DNA of 64,000 nucleotides. It comes from Parcubacteria group bacterium. GTDB taxonomy: Bacteria; Patescibacteriota; Patescibacteriia; Buchananbacterales; UBA6539. A program made the translations under genes and the position numbers. Below, piece after piece: positions 3,284 to 41,405 of this stretch (position 1 is the stretch's first letter; every line of letters begins with the position of its first letter). The stretch is taken from NCBI GenBank assembly GCA_002687175.1, contig NYZP01000030.1:227-64226 (forward strand), in the 5' to 3' direction. The notes below the pieces were generated by a model that did no database searches, was not told the DNA's origin, and saw only the letters and a program-made list of their open reading frames with translations.

Positions 3284-5077
3284 TTAGCCTTTTCTGGAAG
3301 CTCTTATTCTATCAACTTCTTTTAACTGCTGTTTTCGTAATCTAACACTTTTTGGCGTAATTTCTAAATATTCATCATCATTCATAATTTCCATCCCACT
3401 TTCAATGGTAAGTTCTAACGGTGGTGTTAAAGCAATAGCTTCGTCGGCTCCGGAAGAACGCATGTTAGTTAGTTGCTTACCTTTAATAGGGTTAACTGCC
3501 ATATCATCGCCTTTAGAGGCATCGCCAATAACCATGCCTTCATAGACCTCAGTGGTTGGGGCAATATAAAGCTGACCACGAGTTTGTAAATTATTTAGCG
3601 AAAATCCTAAGGCTTTTCCGGTTGCCATGGAAATCATAGAGCCAGTTGATCGTTTGGTGATTGCTCCAGCATGAGGTTTAAAATCAATGACCCGTGAGGC
3701 CATGATACCAGCACCTTTAGTATCAACAATAAACTCACCACGATAGCCTAAAAGGCCACGAGTGGGAATTTCAAACAGTAAACGGGTTTGGCCATTATGC
3801 TGATTCATGTCAGTCATTTTGCCACCACGCTTGGACAGTTTTTCAATGACCGCACCGGAGGATTCGGTTGGCGTATCAATTGTTACTTCTTCAAATGGCT
3901 CAAATTTTTTACCCTCAATTTCTTTAGTAATAACCTGAGGTTGAGAAATTTGCATTTCATAGCCTTGGCGTCTCATATTTTCTAATAATATGGCAATATG
4001 CATTTCGCCACGGCCGTGGATGCGGTAACGGTCTTTGGCTGAAAAATCAATATTCAAACCAACATTAACTTCCAACTCTTTTTTTAATCGTTCATCAAGT
4101 TGACTGTTGGTAACAAAAGTTCCTTCTTTGCCGGCAAAAGGAGAGTTGTTAACTAATAGGTCTAAAGAAATTGTTGGTTCGTCAATTGAAATAGCTGGTA
4201 AAGCTTCTTGGTATTCAGTTTCACAAATTGTTTCACCGATATCAATGTCGGAAATACCAGCAGCCATAATAATGTCTCCGGCTTTGGCTGTTTCTACTTC
4301 TTTTCTATCGAAACCTTCAAAGGTAAATAATTTTGTAATACTGGCCTTACGATTTTCTCCTTTACTGTTTTTAATAACTACTTTTTGAGCTTTAGCAATG
4401 GTACCTTCATATATACGGCCAACCGCTAACCGACCTAAATAATCATCATAAGCTAAATTAAAAGGTTGCATCCGCAACTGTGCTTCAACATCATTAGGAG
4501 CAGGGGAGACATATTCTAAAATGGTATCTAACAACGGATCCATATTATCAGAATTATCATCTAAATTTTTTTTAGCTAAACCTTGGACACCAATTGAGTA
4601 AACGGTAATGAAATCAAGTTGATCATCATTGGCACCTAAATCCATGAAAAGTTCTAATACTTGATCATGTGCTTTGTGAGGATCTGCTGCTGGTTTATCA
4701 ATTTTATTTAAAACAACAATTGGCTTTAAACCAAGCTCTAAAGATTTTTTTAAAACAAATCTGGTTTGAGGCATTGGTCCTTCTTGAGCATCAACAATTA
4801 ATAGTACTGAATCAATGGAACGCAAAACACGCTCAACTTCTGAACTGAAGTCAGCGTGACCAGGAGTATCAACAATATTAATTTTAGTATCCTTATATAT
4901 TAATGAAGCGTTCTTGGCATAAATTGTAATACCTCGTTCTTGTTCTAAGGTATCAGAATCCATGCTAACGCCGTCACCAATCATCCCAGTTTGTTTCATC
5001 ATGGCATCAACCAAAGTTGTCTTTCCATGATCAACGTGAGCAATGATCGCTATATTTCTAGTTTCTTTATAATTCAT
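3284..5077 (-). CDS. typA: translational GTPase TypA/BipA
   Basis: 597 aa; AHVDHGKTT G1, DTPGH, NKID motifs, TypA-specific C-terminus. Confidence 0.9.
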   Translation of the reverse strand: MNYKETRNIAIIAHVDHGKTTLVDAMMKQTGMIGDGVSMDSDTLEQERGITIYAKNASLIYKDTKINIVDTPGHADFSSEVERVLRSIDSVLLIVDAQEGPMPQTRFVLKKSLELGLKPIVVLNKIDKPAADPHKAHDQVLELFMDLGANDDQLDFITVYSIGVQGLAKKNLDDNSDNMDPLLDTILEYVSPAPNDVEAQLRMQPFNLAYDDYLGRLAVGRIYEGTIAKAQKVVIKNSKGENRKASITKLFTFEGFDRKEVETAKAGDIIMAAGISDIDIGETICETEYQEALPAISIDEPTISLDLLVNNSPFAGKEGTFVTNSQLDERLKKELEVNVGLNIDFSAKDRYRIHGRGEMHIAILLENMRRQGYEMQISQPQVITKEIEGKKFEPFEEVTIDTPTESSGAVIEKLSKRGGKMTDMNQHNGQTRLLFEIPTRGLLGYRGEFIVDTKGAGIMASRVIDFKPHAGAITKRSTGSMISMATGKALGFSLNNLQTRGQLYIAPTTEVYEGMVIGDASKGDDMAVNPIKGKQLTNMRSSGADEAIALTPPLELTIESGMEIMNDDEYLEITPKSVRLRKQQLKEVDRIRASRKG

Positions 5078-6933: not shown

Positions 6934-7662
6934 ATGCAAGAAAGGAAATTAATTTCCGTTAAGGGACTAAAAAAAGAATTTGTCTCTGGTGAAGTGGTTA
7001 CTAAAGTTTTGAAAGGTCTTGATTTCGAAATTGCTAAGGGTGAATTTATAGCCATAATGGGGCCATCAGGCTCAGGAAAATCAACGTTAATGCACGTCTT
7101 AGGATTTTTAGAAAGATTGACCGAAGGTCAATATTTTTTTGATAATGAGGATATTTCACAATTTACTGACGAAAAATTAGCAAAGTATCGAAATAATAAA
7201 ATCGGTTTTATTTTTCAAACTTATAATTTACTTCCTAAAACCTCAATTTACGACAACGTTAAATTGCCCTTGATTTACGCTGATATAAAATCAAACGAAA
7301 TGGACAAGAGAGTTAAGCAGGCAGTAGCAGCAGTTGGTTTGACTCATCGTATAGATTTTTTATCAAACCAATTATCTGGTGGCGAGCAACAACGAGTAGC
7401 CATTGCTCGGGCCTTGGTCAATAACCCAAGTGTTATTTTTGCTGATGAACCAACCGGAAATTTAGATTCAACAGCCGGACAACAAATTATGAAGATTATC
7501 CAAGACTTAAACAAGAAAGGTAGGACTATAATATTGGTTACTCATGAACAAGATACTGCCGAACATGCTAAACGAATCATCCACATCAAAGACGGATTAA
7601 TTGAAAGTGATAAAAATGTTAAAAATCAACGCAATGCCATGAATCACAAATTACAGAAGTAG
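6934..7662 (+). CDS. ABC transporter ATP-binding protein (MacB/LolD-type)
   Basis: 242 aa; Walker [10 protein letters not shown], signature LSGGEQQR, Walker B IFADEPT. Confidence 0.9.
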
Positions 7663-7664
7663 TT

Positions 7665-8906
7665 ATGAATTTAATTGAAAGTTTCATTAGTAGTATTAAA
7701 AATATCAGAGCGCATAAACTGCGTTCGTTTTTAACTATGCTCGGAATGATTATTGGAATTTCAGCAGTAATTATTATTTTATCACTTGGCGCTGGAGCTC
7801 AAGGTTTAATTTTAGATCAAATCAGTGGAGTCGGTACGAATTTAATTGGTGTATTACCAGGTCAGGCCGAAGAAGATGGTCCACCGGCCTCTATTTTAGG
7901 CATTACTGTTACTACCTTAAAATTCGAAGATGCCCAGGCTATTGGTGAAAGTCGGAACGCCCCAAATGTTCAGGATGTGGCTGCTTATGTTCGGGGAACT
8001 GCCACGGTAGTTTATCGCAATAAGGATGTAGGAACCAGCTTTACTGGCACAACCGCTAGTTATTTAGATGTTGAAGAAACTGATGTTAAACAAGGAAGAT
8101 TTTTTGATCAGTCAGAAGAAGTGGGCATTCATCGGGTAGCCGTTTTAGGTAGCACATTAACTAAAGATTTATTTGGTGAACAAAATCCAATCGGTCAAAA
8201 TATTAAAATTAAAAAAGAACTTTTTCGAGTAGTAGGTGTAATGAAAGAAAGGGGAAGTAGTTTTTTTGTAAATCAAGACGATGAGATTTTTGTTCCTTTA
8301 CAGACAGCCCAAAAGATTTTGTTGGGAATTAATCATTTAAATTTTATTAGAGCCAAAATTGATAGCCCAGAAAATATTGAACAAAGCCTCGAAGATATTA
8401 AAGTAACTCTTAGGGAAAAACATGACATTGATAATCCTGAAGAAGATGATTTTACAGTCAGAAGTACCCAAACAGCCACTGATATATTAACCCAAGTAAC
8501 CAATGCTTTAAAATTTTTCCTAGTCGCTATTGCTTCGATTGCTTTAATCGTCGGTGGTATTGGCATTATGAATATAATGTTAGTGGTGGTGAACGAACGA
8601 ATAAGGGAAATCGGTCTACGTAAGGCTTTAGGGGCCACTAGGAAAGATGTTATCGGTCAATTTATCATGGAAACGGTTATAATCTCACTAATCGGCGGAG
8701 TAATTGGTATTATCATTGGAGCCTTAATTTCAGTTATTATTTCACTAGTGATTAATTATTTAGGTTTTTCTTGGCAGTTAGTAATTTCTTTAAGTTCAAT
8801 ACTAATTGCTGTAACATTTTCAATTATCGTTGGTTTAGTTTTTGGAATTTATCCAGCCTTAAAAGCAGCTAAGCTAGATCCAATTACTGCTTTAAGATAC
8901 GAATAA
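7665..8906 (+). CDS. ABC transporter permease, FtsX/MacB family
   Basis: 413 aa; N-terminal TM, large periplasmic domain, C-terminal 3 TM with GIMNIMLV motif. Confidence 0.85.
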   Translation: MNLIESFISSIKNIRAHKLRSFLTMLGMIIGISAVIIILSLGAGAQGLILDQISGVGTNLIGVLPGQAEEDGPPASILGITVTTLKFEDAQAIGESRNAPNVQDVAAYVRGTATVVYRNKDVGTSFTGTTASYLDVEETDVKQGRFFDQSEEVGIHRVAVLGSTLTKDLFGEQNPIGQNIKIKKELFRVVGVMKERGSSFFVNQDDEIFVPLQTAQKILLGINHLNFIRAKIDSPENIEQSLEDIKVTLREKHDIDNPEEDDFTVRSTQTATDILTQVTNALKFFLVAIASIALIVGGIGIMNIMLVVVNERIREIGLRKALGATRKDVIGQFIMETVIISLIGGVIGIIIGALISVIISLVINYLGFSWQLVISLSSILIAVTFSIIVGLVFGIYPALKAAKLDPITALRYE

Positions 8907-15902: not shown

Positions 15903-17498
15903 ATGGATCTAACATTATATCGAAAATATCGCCCTCAAAGCTTTAAAGAAGTTATTGGGCAGAACCATGTTAAAACCACGGTTCAAAGTGAAATTGAAAC
16001 TGGTAAAGTGGCTCATGCTTATCTATTTTCTGGTCCTCGTGGTCTTGGTAAAACTACTATGGCCCGGCTTTTGGCAAAAGCGGTTAATTGCTTAAAAGTA
16101 AAATCTGGTAGTAGTGAACCATGTAACAGCTGTGACGCTTGTACTGAATTAATGGCGGCTAAGTCGCTAGATATCATTGAAATCGATGCGGCGTCACATA
16201 CCGGGGTTGATAATGTTCGGGAAAATATTATTGATAATGCTCGGTTTACCCCAACAAGTCGTAAATTTAAAGTTTTTATTATTGATGAAGTTCACATGCT
16301 GTCAGTATCAGCATTTAATGCCCTGTTAAAAATTTTAGAGGAACCACCAGATCATGTAATGTTTATTTTGGCTACTACCGAAATTCATAAAGTTCCAGAA
16401 ACTATTATTTCTCGTTGTCAGCACTTTGAATTCAGAAAAGTAACCGAGGCCGAAATTGTCGGTCGTTTAAATCAACTTGTTACAAAAGAAAAAAGATCAG
16501 TTGATAAATCAATTTTAGAAAATATTGCTTATTATGCAGATGGTGGTATGCGTGACGCTGAAAGTTTACTCGGTCAAATTTTATCTTTAAGTGATAAAGA
16601 AATTACCCCTGAGCAAGCCGAGTTAGTGCTACCACGATCTCGTTTTGATTTAGTTTTAGAATTTATTGCTTATTTAAGTAAAAAGGATTCAACCGCCGCG
16701 ATCGGCTTAATAAATCGGTTAGTTCAGGAAGGAATTGATTTAGAAAAGTTTAATGTTGAACTAATTGAAGTGTTAAGAAAAATTTTACTGATAAAAATAA
16801 ATCAAGATTTAAGTAAATATACTAGTGGTTTGAATAAAGATCTGGAAAAAAGAGTAACTGATATTTCTAAAGATATGACACTCAATTTTTTAGTTAGAGC
16901 AACAGAAATTTTTATGGCTAAACAGCAAGATCTTAAATTCGCCACTATTTATCAACTGCCATTAGAATTAGCAATTTTAGAAATAATTGGTTCCAACCAG
17001 GAAGAAGTTAATGATAATGATAACGATGTAGATTCATCAAATAATAATAAACCTCTAGCAACACCTAAAGTAGATAATAAGATTACAGAGAGGCCAAAAC
17101 CAGAAGTGAAAAAACAAGTTAATAGTGCTGTTGCTGTCAGACTAACTTTAGATCAAATTAAAGAAAAATGGGGAGAAGTTTTACAAAATTTAAAGCAGTA
17201 TAATCAAAGCCTAGCTTCAGCTTTAAAGATTGGCCAACCGGGATCGGTAAAAGATGATGGAACACTAGAGGTTTGCTTTAAACATAAATTTCATCAAGAA
17301 AGAATTAACGACACCAAAAACAAAAAGATTTTAGAAAGTGTCCTAGAAGAAATTTTTGGGGTTAAGCTAATTGTTAGAACATTAGTTGTTAAAGAACTGC
17401 CTGATAAGGAAGTCATAGTCGAAGCGGTTGCTGAAAAGCCAGCCGATGATTCCTTGGATAATATTTTAAAAACATTTGGCGGTCAGGTTGTAGATTAG
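15903..17498 (+). CDS. dnaX: DNA polymerase III subunit gamma/tau
   Basis: 531 aa; GPRGLGKTT Walker A, zinc Cys cluster CNSCDAC, SRC arginine finger. Confidence 0.9.
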   Translation: MDLTLYRKYRPQSFKEVIGQNHVKTTVQSEIETGKVAHAYLFSGPRGLGKTTMARLLAKAVNCLKVKSGSSEPCNSCDACTELMAAKSLDIIEIDAASHTGVDNVRENIIDNARFTPTSRKFKVFIIDEVHMLSVSAFNALLKILEEPPDHVMFILATTEIHKVPETIISRCQHFEFRKVTEAEIVGRLNQLVTKEKRSVDKSILENIAYYADGGMRDAESLLGQILSLSDKEITPEQAELVLPRSRFDLVLEFIAYLSKKDSTAAIGLINRLVQEGIDLEKFNVELIEVLRKILLIKINQDLSKYTSGLNKDLEKRVTDISKDMTLNFLVRATEIFMAKQQDLKFATIYQLPLELAILEIIGSNQEEVNDNDNDVDSSNNNKPLATPKVDNKITERPKPEVKKQVNSAVAVRLTLDQIKEKWGEVLQNLKQYNQSLASALKIGQPGSVKDDGTLEVCFKHKFHQERINDTKNKKILESVLEEIFGVKLIVRTLVVKELPDKEVIVEAVAEKPADDSLDNILKTFGGQVVD

Positions 17499-17682
17499 AT
17501 AGACAGTAAATATTCGGGGATCGTCCACCTACGCCAAAGCTTCGGTGGACAAGTCTAACGGCTTAGCCCCATAACTCGGGGATCGTCTAATCCCCGACAT
17601 AAAGTCGGGGCAGGGTCCGGACGCCAGACATGGTTTGTCCTGTCCAAACTTCGGAGATCGTCTAACGTCCCCGCCCCATAAC

Positions 17683-17753
17683 TCGGGGATCGTCTAATGG
17701 TAGGACGCCTGGTTCTGGTCCAGGTAATCTAGGTTCGAATCCTGGTCCCCGAG
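17683..17753 (+). tRNA. tRNA-Gln (anticodon CUG), no encoded CCA
   Basis: cloverleaf folds by hand: acceptor UCGGGGA/UCCCCGA with U1-A72 and G73 (bacterial Gln identity), D arm GUCU/GGAC, anticodon stem CCUGG/CCAGG loop UUCUGGU, T arm CUAGG-UUCGAAU-CCUGG. Confidence 0.85.
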
Positions 17754-17938
17754 TTATGGGGCGGGATAAATAGGACGCCAGGTGGCGCCTGCCCCGCCGC
17801 ATGGCGGGGGATCCTGGTAATCGGGGTTCGCGCGAAGCGCCTGTCTCCGAGGCTTGTACAGGAATCATGCTTGTCCGCCAAAGCCTGGAGGGCGTAGGTG
17901 GTTCCCTGAGCCAATAAATAATAAATAAATAAAATTTA

Positions 17939-18718
17939 ATGGACCCTAAATATCAGCAGATTATTGATTTTATCAAGGAGTCTGGAGAGGAGATTGTAGA
18001 ACAATTTGGAAAAATTAAATATATTGATGTTAAACATCGTTTCACCAGCGAATACGATTTAAAAATTGAACGAGGCTTTGAAAAAATTGTTAAAGGTTTT
18101 GGTGAAGGCCATAAACTTTATGCTGAAGAAGAACACGATGCCTTTAGCGAGGCAAATAATTTGTGGGTAGTCGACCCAATTAGTGGCACACGATTTTTAA
18201 TTGAAGGCACAAAGTACTACTCCATTGTGGCTACTCATGTGCAAAATGGAAAATCATTATTCTCGGCGGTGTATGGTCCCAGTATTAATGAATTTTTTGT
18301 AGCTATGGCTGGTCAAGGTTCATTTTTGAATGATAAAAAAATTACTATTAATCCTAGTCAACCAAATCCTAAAATAATATTTAAAGTTTCTGATGAGTGG
18401 AAAGATTTAGAAGCTGCTGAAAGAGTTCGTTTGGTGCTAAAAACTTTCAATTTCGAAGAAGTTGAAAAATCAGAAGCGCTAAATTACAGCAATGTTGCCT
18501 GTGGTCGAGCTGACTGCTTTGTTTTACTGGGTAAAGATTCTTTTCCCAGTTTTGCTGGTCAATTAATAGTGACCGAAGCGGGAGGTGTTTTTAGCAATAT
18601 TAAAGGGGAGTCCATAATTAATCACGATGATAAAATTTTTATTGCCGGTGAACAAACTATTAATGACAAGATCTTACCGTTAGTCCAAAAGGCTCTCGGC
18701 TCTTATTACATTAATTAA
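17939..18718 (+). CDS. inositol monophosphatase family protein
   Basis: 259 aa; WVVDPISGT metal-binding motif. Confidence 0.75.
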   Translation: MDPKYQQIIDFIKESGEEIVEQFGKIKYIDVKHRFTSEYDLKIERGFEKIVKGFGEGHKLYAEEEHDAFSEANNLWVVDPISGTRFLIEGTKYYSIVATHVQNGKSLFSAVYGPSINEFFVAMAGQGSFLNDKKITINPSQPNPKIIFKVSDEWKDLEAAERVRLVLKTFNFEEVEKSEALNYSNVACGRADCFVLLGKDSFPSFAGQLIVTEAGGVFSNIKGESIINHDDKIFIAGEQTINDKILPLVQKALGSYYIN

Positions 18719-37931: not shown

Positions 37932-38686
37932 TTTATTGTCCAAGCAAACTGATAAGCCGAATTTTGTATTCCCTCACTTTTTCTAAAAGTGATGGATGAT
38001 GATCATCTATCTTGACTGTTTGTTGCCAAACAGCTCATGCTGCTTACCAAATTTAGCATTGCACCAGGTAGAGTTTACCACGACATCCTGTCACCAGGAG
38101 CCGAGTTAAGAAGCGTTACGCTGAAGGGATATCCCGTATTCAGCACAGCACACCTTAACACTTTTCACATTTGGCCAGCGCTACGCGCTGAAAATTATAA
38201 GTCCAAAATCACAAATCACAAATAATTTATTTGGAATTTAATGTTTTGAATTTTGAATTTGCAGTGCGCAGCACTGACTTGTATAGTCTCTGTGGAACTG
38301 GTCCTCTTTTACCGTTACCAGCAAAAGGGTGGGCGTTACCCACTACCGCTTTATGGTGTTCGGACTTTCCTCCCCCCACTTTCTAAATTCTATTATTTGT
38401 CTATACTTTTTTGAATACGCTTTTTTAAATGACCATAACTTCCTTTAAACTGTTTTAATGATCTTTCTCTTTTTTGTGCATCCTCTTTAAATTTATAGGC
38501 CTCGTAATAAACTAATTCTAAAGGCCTAAAATTTTTAGTAAATTTTGATTCACCATTTGTATGCTCTTTTACTCTTCGCTGTAAATTATTTGAATATCCA
38601 ATGTATAATTTACCATCTTTGAGTTTTAAAACATACATATAGAACATAGAAAGTGGGGGGCGATCATCTAGCTTACTTAGACAATT
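37932..38686 (-). ncRNA. rnpB: RNase P RNA, bacterial type A, with a ~275-nt insertion in P3 that contains the GIY-YIG ORF
   Basis: minus strand: P4 5' GGAGGAAAGUCCGAACACC (38355-38373), GGUAACGCC / ACAGAGA / GGUAAACUCUACCUGGUGCAAUGCUAAAUUUGG blocks colinear with the E. coli M1 RNA sequence as recalled from memory (no alignment was run), P4 3' ACAAAAUUCGGCUUA (37953-37967), P1 UUGUCUAAGUAAGC (38671-38684) pairs with GUUUGCUUGGACAA (37936-37949), P2 GAUGAUC/GAUCAUC, P3 arms CCCCCCACUUUCU (38648-38660) and AGAAAGUGGGGGG (38372-38384). Confidence 0.85.
38393..38647 (-). CDS. GIY-YIG nuclease superfamily protein (YhbQ/UPF0213-like), encoded inside rnpB P3 loop
   Basis: 84 aa; MFYMYVLKLKDGKLYIGYSNNLQRRVKEH GIY-YIG motifs; ATG directly follows the P3 5' strand. 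Confidence 0.75.
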   Translation of the reverse strand: MFYMYVLKLKDGKLYIGYSNNLQRRVKEHTNGESKFTKNFRPLELVYYEAYKFKEDAQKRERSLKQFKGSYGHLKKRIQKSIDK

Positions 38687-41306: not shown

Positions 41307-41331
41307 TCTAACTTATGCGTATTGGTGTTGA
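41307..41331 (+). repeat. 25-bp direct duplicate of the start of the 41406 gene (CTAACTTATGCGTATTGGTGTTGAC)
   Basis: identical except 1 nt to 41399-41423; the copy opens an 8-codon ORF ending in a GC hairpin. Confidence 0.6.
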
Positions 41332-41405
41332 CCCCGCATAGTGCGGGGCAAGACAAGGAAAGATACGAATCATAGTATGTTGACCATAATCTAATTTTCT
41401 AATTT

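Follow-up and report, generated by a model that had tools for sequence, protein, structure and literature searches.

A GC-rich island of nested tRNA-Gln copies in a Parcubacteria genome, probably left by selfish cassettes that target tRNA-Gln

How one intact transfer RNA gene comes to be surrounded by broken copies of itself is the question raised by a short island in a 64,000-nucleotide stretch of DNA from a Parcubacteria group bacterium (GenBank assembly GCA_002687175.1, contig NYZP01000030.1, positions 227 to 64,226), called the window hereafter. Judging from the assembly source names, the host is a marine Parcubacteria/Buchananbacteria-like bacterium of the Candidate Phyla Radiation (CPR; Patescibacteria). 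The window is AT-rich and the island, spanning 17514–17913, has a GC content of 52–68% as compared with a fraction of ~0.2–0.45 in its flanks. It contains a tRNA-Gln gene embedded in pieces of tRNA-Gln sequence. The comparison of this island with related loci suggested that it is probably a nest left by a family of selfish cassettes, which target tRNA-Gln genes and bring their own working copy of the gene along.

The 12-mer TCGGRGATCGTC covers the 5' strand of the acceptor stem and the beginning of the D arm. It is present four times in the 64 kb, at 17514, 17576, 17651 and 17683, always on the + strand. Its chance expectation from shuffles was 0.09, and four copies were reached in 0 of 100 shuffles. 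An earlier sequence-only reading of this DNA had placed these copies at 17518, 17577, 17652 and 17683, which is off by 1–4 nt at most. Both ARAGORN and the Rfam tRNA model (59.5 bits) called a single tRNA-Gln(CTG) at 17682/3–17753/4, the gene that the same reading had recognised as tRNA-Gln(CUG), and the bare acceptor minihelix described there was found as TCGGGGATCGTCTAA-TCCCCGA at 17576–17597. The second pair of repeats said to bracket the block is also present, with TGGACAAG at 17546–17553 and CTTGTCC at 17870–17876. Other claims needed correction. The leader and trailer of the tRNA do pair, lengthening its acceptor stem to a perfect helix of 20 bp from arms that are 100% complementary (17670–17689 with 17746–17765), which is more than had been stated, and the outer 11-nt inverted repeat is real with CCACCTACGCC at 17525–17535, instead of 17531–17541, and GGCGTAGGTGG at 17891–17901. 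What had been taken for a further diverged copy at 17541 turned out to be the 3' arm of a small hairpin, followed by GTCTAACGG (17553–17561) that continues the D arm of the outermost copy.

The 3' pieces of tRNA-Gln had been overlooked in that reading. They are TAGGACGCCAGG..TCTCCGAG at 17771–17851 and TCCCTGA+GCCA at 17903–17913, and they follow each other in reverse order. The first of them reads TAGGAC-G-CCAGG...CCTGG-TAAT-CGGGG...TCTCCGA-G, which is tRNA-Gln from the 3' strand of the D stem to the acceptor. The outer acceptor strands pair with their own partners, TCGGAGA (17651) with TCTCCGA and TCGGGGA (17514) with TCCCTGA. The D loop of an older copy harbours the intact tRNA and its flanks between GTCTAA and TAGGAC, and this older copy is itself enclosed by a still older one. 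The window has four such layers, all without an open reading frame (ORF), and the innermost tRNA alone is intact. An array of clustered regularly interspaced short palindromic repeats was rejected, as it had been in the sequence-only reading, because the repeats are irregular, nested and tRNA derived.

The island was found in six independent assemblies (TARA, NCBI GCA_002434675.1, Logan, ENA and JGI) with 99.2–100% identity, and it is therefore not an assembly artefact. Two of the six assemblies of the window organism (L005 and L006; L numbers denote loci throughout) end inside the island, at window positions 17863 and 17758, and the internal repeats probably confused the assemblers there.

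The loci downstream of dnaX were compared in relatives whose DnaX proteins are 66–69% identical, and every state was found. The tRNA-Gln is plain in L028 and L063, and plain with a paired leader and trailer in L009. L128 has the outer 5' shell only, and full nests are present in L007, L010 and L104. In L008, the outer tRNA-Gln is split by an insert containing an ORF of the GIY-YIG nuclease family (Pfam PF01541, E = 1e-13), which is followed by an intact tRNA-Gln. Filled and empty alleles of this position were found, in distant relatives only. Furthermore, JGI metagenomes were scanned with an alignment of three cassette ORFs, and 80 loci were obtained with 53–67% identity to the L008 ORF. In 74 of the 80 loci, the ORF match is followed after 8–9 nt, on the same strand, by an intact tRNA-Gln (CTG or TTG); five of the other six are cut by the contig end, and in L195 the sole tRNA-Gln call lies ~800 nt downstream.

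The cassette ends were counted in 66 distinct loci. The left end CTTGCCCCGCC, allowing up to two mismatches, stands directly before the ORF in 63 of the 66 and is preceded by TCGTCTAA in 40 loci and by variants of it in others. The right end GGCGGGGTGAA was found 16–67 nt past the inner tRNA in 56 of 62 loci, and after it come (G)TAGGAC and the remainder of a tRNA-Gln. The full-length cassette is ordered as the left end CTTGCCCCGCC(AAATTT), an ATG with a GIY-YIG ORF of ~80 codons, ~8 nt, an intact tRNA-Gln without CCA, a short trailer, and the right inverted end (AAATTT)GGCGGGGTGAAG. The geometry is fixed, with 5–8 nt from the left end to the ATG in most loci and 242 or 245 nt from the ATG to the tRNA. 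There is a single insertion site, the D-loop-coding part of the resident tRNA-Gln gene between TCGTCTAA and TAGGAC, and the resident gene is split there into a 15-nt 5' shell and a ~50-nt 3' shell, both of which decay. Cassettes span CPR lineages including Levybacteria (L030) and Buchananbacteria-like Parcubacteria (L008). Nested copies and derivatives reduced to a hairpin are frequent, and most CPR tRNA-Gln genes are uninterrupted (~50 of ~64 low-GC species representatives).

The two outer halves of these loci once formed a single resident gene. In 37 of 49 loci, and mostly at the +45 to +47 nt expected for an uninterrupted tRNA, a sequence complementary to the outer 5' acceptor strand lies downstream of the right end; the reversed-sequence control gave 14 of 49. 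The outer strands pair exactly in L131, L139, L141, L158, L197, L199 and L207 despite a difference between the outer and inner acceptors; in L197, for example, the outer pair is TCCGGGG/CCCCGGA and the inner pair TGCCGGG/CCCGGCA. The encoded CCA is absent from all inner copies (0 of 66) and present in 9 of 28 outer copies and in 17 of 50 uninvaded low-GC tRNA-Gln genes. The window matches this pattern, with an outermost layer ending in GCCA and an inner tRNA without it. The encoded CCA separates the outer copies, as the resident lineage, from the inner copies, as the cassette lineage. The inner and outer copies are of the same isoacceptor in every locus inspected, as expected if replacing the destroyed gene keeps the host alive. 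The outer copies lack G18 and G19 (the TGG of the D loop), are mutated, and many are interrupted again: 9 of 28 outer 3' parts are uninterrupted and about two thirds are broken by extra hairpins.

The simplest account of partial copies would be a plain local duplication, tandem or slipped, followed by decay and involving no mobile element, and a decayed tandem tRNA array had been among the three possibilities named in the sequence-only reading. Tandem tRNA genes are common in bacteria, the island contains direct repeats (D1 and D2) of 22–39 nt, and a second tRNA-Gln call lies nearby in L157, L173, L184 and L204. However, the order of the pieces is nested and not tandem, with the 5' pieces arranged as 1, 2, 3, 4 upstream and the 3' pieces as 4, 3, 1 downstream, so that the array did not survive the analysis. 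The junctions TCGTCTAA/CTTGCCCCGCC and GGCGGGGTGAAG/TAGGAC are shared by over 55 genomic contexts that are unrelated to each other, and 66 different flanks argue against these junctions coming from shared ancestry. In addition, the outer acceptor halves are unlike the inner tRNA and yet pair with each other, the encoded CCA differs between inner and outer copies, and a conserved nuclease ORF accompanies the inner copy. Local duplication was therefore considered very improbable.

The ends of the cassette pair over 13 bp, CCCCGCC+AAATTT with AAATTT+GGCGGGG. Among 36 distinct cassettes, 93% of the cells are paired, 6 of the 13 pairs have changed on both sides, and 0 of 500 shuffles matched; this covariation indicates that the pairing is under selection. 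The outer shells also contain mini hairpins of ~25 nt, which consist of CTTGCCCCGCC, a loop of 2–4 nt and GGCGGGGTGAA in either orientation. They sit in the D loop, in the anticodon loop (11 events) and at one T-arm position (5 events). The hairpin at 17788–17809 is the sole match to CCCGCC-N3-8-GGCGGG in the 64 kb of the window. The long inverted repeats of the island are the pairings between cassette ends and between leader and trailer, plus two mini-hairpin remnants.

Pairing on this scale could also mean that selection acts on all 400 nt as a single rod-shaped RNA bearing the tRNA at one end, in which the extra halves and helices guide or buffer processing as decoys for ribonuclease P (RNase P) or RNase III. 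The + strand of the island has a very stable predicted fold (−217 kcal/mol, z = −10.3), leader and trailer helices surround the tRNA in every related locus, the pairing of the cassette ends covaries, and in L010 a long-range pairing of CGCTTACGTCCC with GGGACGTAGGCG is found at the same place. The reverse strand, however, folds nearly as well (z = −9.5), which is expected of inverted DNA repeats. The outer pieces differ between genomes in number, sequence and layout and are missing from many related genomes; their conserved positions are mutated, as in the T loop of L007 (TTTTACT) and the degenerate T arm of window layer 3, and the extra hairpins break about two thirds of the outer 3' parts. 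Only three single-nucleotide polymorphisms were found inside the island among the six assemblies, at 17864, 17876 and 17902. All of them lie in the 3' outer shell and spare the intact tRNA, the first in the cassette-3 trailer and the other two in the adjacent remnant at 17870–17902. The structured precursor with processing decoys, which was another of the earlier possibilities, did not hold up against outer pieces that are so variable, interrupted and mutated, and we regard a selected rod as quite improbable.

The exact closure of the insert at the D loop by paired, covarying ends allows a further explanation, in which the transcript loses the cassette by cleavage at these ends and its outer halves are ligated or function together as a two-piece tRNA, so that the outer tRNA would still be the real gene, at least where the insertion is young. 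In L197, L191 and L203 the outer copy is perfect but for the insert, non-intron insertions with GIY-YIG ORFs are known from CPR rRNA genes (PMC11270868), and the window itself has a GIY-YIG ORF in what fits the P3 loop of its RNase P RNA. On the other side, a permissive Rfam scan of 17400–18000 (E up to 10) gave no match to a group I or group II intron model, and inspection of the consensus junction showed no bulge-helix-bulge, a motif of two 3-nt bulges with a 4-bp helix between them for which no formal search was made. The junction reads by inspection as a 4-bp helix (the D stem), a 2x2 loop, a 3-bp helix, a 1x2 loop and a 13-bp helix. A complete spare tRNA of the same isoacceptor is always carried, for which there would be no need with a surviving host gene. 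Most outer copies have suffered additional disruption, and the outer D loop lacks G18 and G19. Excision at the RNA level was thus judged improbable. A group I intron was rejected as a candidate, no intron family having been found in the scan of 17400–18000, and so was a bulge-helix-bulge intron, from inspection of the junction.

The cassette ORF encodes a single GIY-YIG domain (~79–80 amino acids) of the UPF0213/YhbQ (Slx1-like) type, whose nearest solved structure is that of BH0048 (1ZG2). Among 63 ORFs with a median pairwise identity of 60%, the catalytic residues Y6, Y16, G18, R27, H31, N32 and E63 are conserved at 98%, and the nuclease is therefore under selection. Searches of the cassette ORF against NCBIfam and PHROG gave no family match, and no relatives of the ORF were found among viral contigs, so that carriage by phages was not supported. 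A GIY-YIG domain with intact catalytic residues was found in the cassette family and not in the window copy, where no GIY-YIG ORF occurs within 17500–17930 and no layer of the island keeps the nuclease ORF. In 60 of 63 loci there is no stop codon before the tRNA, and the frame crosses the whole tRNA (..GSSNGRT..) to end 76–130 nt past the tRNA start; gene callers accordingly report cassette proteins of 100–139 amino acids. The tRNA-Gln thus lies within the 3' end of the nuclease ORF with the frame ending in the trailer (L131–L210; for example L008 at 3857–4270). Cleavage by RNase P at the inner tRNA would, from the layout of these frames, leave a nuclease mRNA without a stop codon.

Small GIY-YIG ORFs were also seen 36–500 nt downstream of uninterrupted tRNA-Gln genes, on the same strand, in L023, L047, L092 and L123, and this is a second kind of association between the GIY-YIG family and tRNA-Gln.

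A possible course of events can be proposed for the cassettes. The GIY-YIG protein would cut the DNA of an intact tRNA-Gln gene in or near the D-loop segment, and a filled allele would then be the template for repair, from which the cassette is copied into the break by way of the tRNA shells as homology arms. The spare tRNA-Gln would keep the cell alive and at the same time recreate the target site, and the inner copy could be invaded again through misaligned repair to give stacked, nested layers. Copying aborted across the paired ends might give rise to the mini hairpins. The paired ends may also act in RNA, for example by forming a helix at which processing releases the ORF and the inner pre-tRNA, and cleavage of this helix together with RNase P action at the inner tRNA could conceivably control the expression of the nuclease. 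Several features hint at control of this kind: the ends pair, the ATG lies directly at the helix, no ribosome-binding site is visible and the stop codon is missing. Homing driven by the GIY-YIG protein was given an even chance of being the mobility mechanism. We lean slightly towards the view that the cassettes are a novel class of selfish CPR element, with paired ends, a minimal and possibly structure-specific GIY-YIG nuclease, invasion of the D loop and a spare tRNA-Gln, and that the same nuclease family also lives in RNase P RNA and 16S genes.

Several points weigh against this explanation. With only 15 nt, the left homology arm is short for repair of the RecA type across unrelated genomes, and the bare GIY-YIG domain lacks the DNA-binding domain that gives the known GIY-YIG homing enzymes their specificity. 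No clear target-site duplication was seen; instead, the junction lacks the D-loop TGG, and this loss together with hairpins in both orientations looks more like transposition than homing. To our knowledge, the GIY-YIG domain, which is the product of the cassette's only ORF, is not a recognised transposase family. A BLAST comparison of the cassette flanks with all fetched loci gave matches to the same strains only and no near-identical pair of filled and empty alleles. The relatedness of the ORFs showed no link with the anticodon carried, since 35 of 63 nearest neighbours share the anticodon as compared with 50% by chance, a comparison that tells nothing in a star-like family of 60% identity. 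The layers of the window, having no ORF, would need a nuclease acting in trans or would predate the loss of the ORF, and the assignment of 17599–17637 and 17870–17902 to particular layers is interpretive. The missing DNA-binding domain, the 15-nt arm, the loss of TGG and the two-way hairpins would also fit a transposition-like or structure-specific mechanism.

The GIY-YIG family was found in other stable-RNA genes as well. The RNase P RNA gene of the window (37937–38684) contains an 84-amino-acid GIY-YIG ORF on the minus strand (38393–38647), which is 36% identical to the cassette ORF and is flanked by CCCCCCACTTTCT (38667–38655) and AGAAAGTGGGGGG (38384–38372), directly before the P4 sequence AGGAAAGTCCG. 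The Rfam match to RNase P RNA starts only past the ORF, with P3 deleted and the 5' strands of P1 and P2 poor; the alignment fits a true 5' end of the RNA upstream of the ORF and a place for the ORF in the P3 loop. L211 has the same layout with an ORF that is 79% identical. Homologues with 52–54% identity to the RNase P ORF are located inside 16S ribosomal RNA (rRNA) genes, at 1501–1761 in L212 and at both 821–1081 and 1226–1486 within one gene in L213, in keeping with the GIY-YIG insertions described for CPR rRNA genes. The insertions in RNase P RNA and 16S genes support the idea that a small nuclease family inhabits stable-RNA genes. In L212, a tRNA-Ile(GAT) was called at 2795–2874, inside the stretch that Rfam aligned to the first 849 positions of 16S rRNA, and the 16S stretch there is ~1 kb longer than the Rfam model.

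Among the known systems, the cassette is closest in kind to homing endonucleases and stable-RNA insertions, with which it is classed, and it is a member of no named family. SegB of the tRNA gene cluster of phage T4 is a free-standing GIY-YIG homing endonuclease, whose spread by a double-strand break and copying together with the flanking tRNA DNA is established (PMC2330249; also PMC13096335). Like SegB, the cassette ties a selfish GIY-YIG nuclease gene to tRNA genes and may spread in such a way. Unlike SegB, it encodes a bare catalytic domain of ~80 amino acids with no DNA-binding module of the kind present in I-TevI and the Seg proteins, and it sits inside a broken copy of its target, with a complete replacement tRNA and paired inverted ends, on CPR chromosomes. 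The non-intron insertions with GIY-YIG ORFs in CPR rRNA genes were reported in a paper that does not mention tRNA (PMC11270868). They share with the cassette the host group, the small GIY-YIG family, a stable-RNA gene as the site and the lack of intron features. These rRNA insertions occupy tolerant loops of a host gene that stays in use, whereas the cassette hits the tRNA D loop, the host copy dies, and its replacement leads to nesting.

An endonuclease gene reportedly interrupts the essential nrdA gene of Aeromonas phage Aeh1, where mobE is said to leave pieces that still cooperate ('genes in pieces'). The cassette likewise interrupts an essential gene without death of the host, but here a spare gene copy inside the cassette rescues the function. 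Archaea have multi-intron and split tRNA genes with mobile bulge-helix-bulge introns. The present loci resemble them in having GC-rich helices inserted into the D loop, the anticodon loop and the T arm of tRNA genes and in showing signs that these insertions move. Unlike the archaeal genes, they belong to a bacterium, which has dnaX and a class A RNase P RNA of the bacterial type; the interrupted copies degenerate, and they enclose a copy that is intact. The mini hairpins, which consist of ends only and occur in both orientations, resemble miniature non-autonomous derivatives such as the miniature inverted-repeat transposable elements (MITEs), and the cassette has terminal inverted repeats. 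They differ from MITEs in being only ~25 nt long, in having no known transposase and in being concentrated at three loop positions of dead tRNA-Gln copies. A MITE-like element that had captured a tRNA was the third possibility of the sequence-only reading and the closest in spirit of the three. An inverted-repeat-bounded tRNA-Gln cassette does exist in the relatives, but the 11-bp repeats then flagged as its termini are not cassette ends; they are two small hairpin remnants in the outermost pseudo-tRNA. A survey of tRNA introns in Patescibacteria described group I introns in anticodon loops and mentions neither tRNA-Gln, GIY-YIG ORFs nor nesting (PMC13011429). A full-text literature search, of incomplete coverage, turned up no account of a cassette that destroys a tRNA gene and supplies its replacement.

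If the proposed model is true, the element neither splices nor avoids an essential gene but supplies a replacement for the gene that it destroys, and this would explain the GC-rich clutter around tRNA-Gln in many CPR genomes. The rRNA, RNase P RNA and tRNA insertions of CPR bacteria would join in one picture of selfish nucleases in stable-RNA genes, and such genes would be a general habitat of these elements in reduced genomes. A natural candidate nuclease of ~80 amino acids, which may act on a site or on a structure, would be of interest to enzymologists and tool builders. Genome annotation is affected as well: tRNA finders report the inner copy only, gene callers continue the nuclease reading frame across the tRNA, and an outer shell may pass for an additional tRNA gene or for an intron.

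tRNA genes are classic integration sites, and integrated elements carry partial tRNA copies that restore the gene; the island might then hold the scars of repeated integration and excision of integrase-coded islands or prophages at tRNA-Gln. Structural variation indeed starts exactly at the outer tRNA 3' end in L148 versus L149 and in L192 versus L194. However, no integrase is encoded within ~4 kb upstream or 6 kb downstream, the inserts measure only 17–330 nt, and no relatives of the ORF were found in viral contigs. With 5' fragments upstream, 3' fragments downstream and a complete gene in the middle, the architecture essentially refutes such scars, which we consider scarcely credible. The sequence-only reading had likewise argued that this is not an ordinary duplication of integrase attachment sites, which agrees with the nested 5' and 3' shells and with the neighbouring genes. 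The cassette resembles tRNA-targeting integrative elements in that an insertion into a tRNA gene is compensated by carried tRNA sequence; it differs in having no integrase, a crossover in the D loop and not in the anticodon loop, T loop or 3' end, a whole tRNA as cargo and tiny inserts.

The features of the island are given layer by layer in Table 1.

Table 1. Parse of the tRNA-Gln island of the window into nested layers and cassettes (layer 1 outermost, layer 4 innermost).
Feature	Coordinates	Strand	Basis
Layer 1 (outermost, oldest), 5' fragment: TCGGGGA+TC+D-stem start, tRNA positions 1–12	17514–17525	+	Exact 12-nt match to the intact tRNA; pairs with TCCCTGA 17903–17909
Small hairpin GTCCACC..GGTGGAC, then AAG, in the layer-1 D stem	17526–17552	+	Inverted repeats I5, I7; hairpins at the same position in L007, L010, L104, L128, L066
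Remaining layer-1 D stem and loop GTCTAACGG, tRNA positions 10–18	17553–17561	+	Sequence match
Cassette 2, left end and leader CTTAGCCCCATAAC, a near copy of the cassette-4 left end	17562–17575	+	Direct repeat D2 (17553–17591 vs 17660–17698, 39 nt, 90% identical)
Layer 2, the 'minihelix': dead tRNA-Gln with internal deletion, positions 1–16 joined to the 3' acceptor strand	17576–17598	+	Repeats, fold, match
ATAAAG (cassette-2 end), reversed cassette-end half GTCGGGGCAGG, then GGACGCCAGAC.. (layer-1 D-stem 3' strand and anticodon-stem remnant)	17599–17637	+	Inverted repeat I8; layer assignment interpretive
Cassette 3, leader and decayed left end TCCTGTCCAAAC	17638–17650	+	Pairs with 17852–17863; inverted repeat I3 (20 nt, 85% complementary); seen in fold
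Layer 3, 5' fragment TCGGAGATCGTCTAA, positions 1–15, ending at the D-loop insertion point	17651–17665	+	Acceptor pairs with TCTCCGA 17844–17850
Cassette 4, left inverted end CGTCCCCGCC (family consensus CTTGCCCCGCC) and leader CCATAAC	17666–17682	+	Repeat and family consensus
Layer 4: intact tRNA-Gln(CUG), no encoded CCA, presumably the sole functional copy	17683–17753	+	ARAGORN; Rfam 59.5 bits
Cassette 4, trailer TTATGG and right inverted end GGCGGGATAAA (family consensus GGCGGGGTGAA)	17754–17770	+	Inverted repeat I1 (20 nt, 100% complementary)
Layer 3, 3' part: TAGGAC, anticodon stem, degenerate T arm, acceptor TCTCCGA, G	17771–17851	+	Direct repeats D4, D7
Mini hairpin CCTGCCCCGCC-GCAT-GGCGGGG breaking the layer-3 anticodon loop	17788–17809	+	Motif match
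Cassette 3, trailer and decayed right end GCTTGTACAGGA..	17852–17869	+	Inverted repeat I3
Cassette-end-like remnant CTTGTCCGCC..GGCGTAGGTGG, former layer-1 T-arm region; second arm of the long-range inverted repeat	17870–17902	+	Inverted repeat I5
Layer 1, 3' acceptor TCCCTGA, discriminator G and encoded CCA; end of the original resident gene	17903–17913	+	Fold; encoded CCA marks resident genes

The history that this parse implies is partly interpretive. Layer 1 would be the original resident gene, made up of 17514–17525 with 17553–17561, 17619–17637 and 17903–17913. Its D loop would hold a dead, ORF-less cassette (17562–17604) and its anticodon region cassette 3 (17638–17650 to 17852–17869) with tRNA copy 3, whose D loop would in turn be split by cassette 4 into 17651–17665 and 17771–17851. 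The hairpin at 17526–17552 is a reverse-orientation derivative of the cassette that consists of ends only, and it forms one arm of the long-range inverted repeat. The bracketing of the whole block would then be this layer-1 mini hairpin paired with the layer-1 remnant.

The island is flanked by a dnaX-like ORF (15903–17498) upstream and an ORF of the inositol-monophosphatase family (17939–18718) downstream, and a redoxin gene and ybaB are further neighbours. A promoter/terminator scan, whose consensus may not apply to the host's group, found no promoter-like site on the + strand of 17300–18100. The tRNA of the window may be transcribed by read-through from dnaX, or the promoter consensus may not be valid for the group.

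A solitary mini hairpin, TTGACCCCGCATAGTGCGGGGCAAG, whose reverse complement CTTGCCCCGCACTATGCGGGGTCAA is of the cassette-end type, was seen at 41326–41352 of the window between two glycosyltransferase-like ORFs, so that mini hairpins are not confined to tRNA-Gln loci. Other nested tRNA-Gln arrangements with different ends and a different insertion point were seen in L086 (~850–1500) and L022 (~7530–7700). The L086 insert follows position ~26 and has GAGTCCCTTGC../..GCAAGGGAC as its closing ends, while its outer acceptor strands, TCCGGGA and TCCCGGA, pair with each other. These arrangements suggest that there are several cassette families. At the 3' side of the gene, L148 is ~1.2 kb longer than L149, and insertions or replacements between near-identical strains, also L192 and L194, begin at the outer tRNA 3' end. 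The motif AAGTCAGGTGAC(C/T)G recurs directly downstream of tRNA-Gln 3' ends, L142, L194 and L201 being among the loci concerned, and another element may use the tRNA-Gln 3' end as its site.

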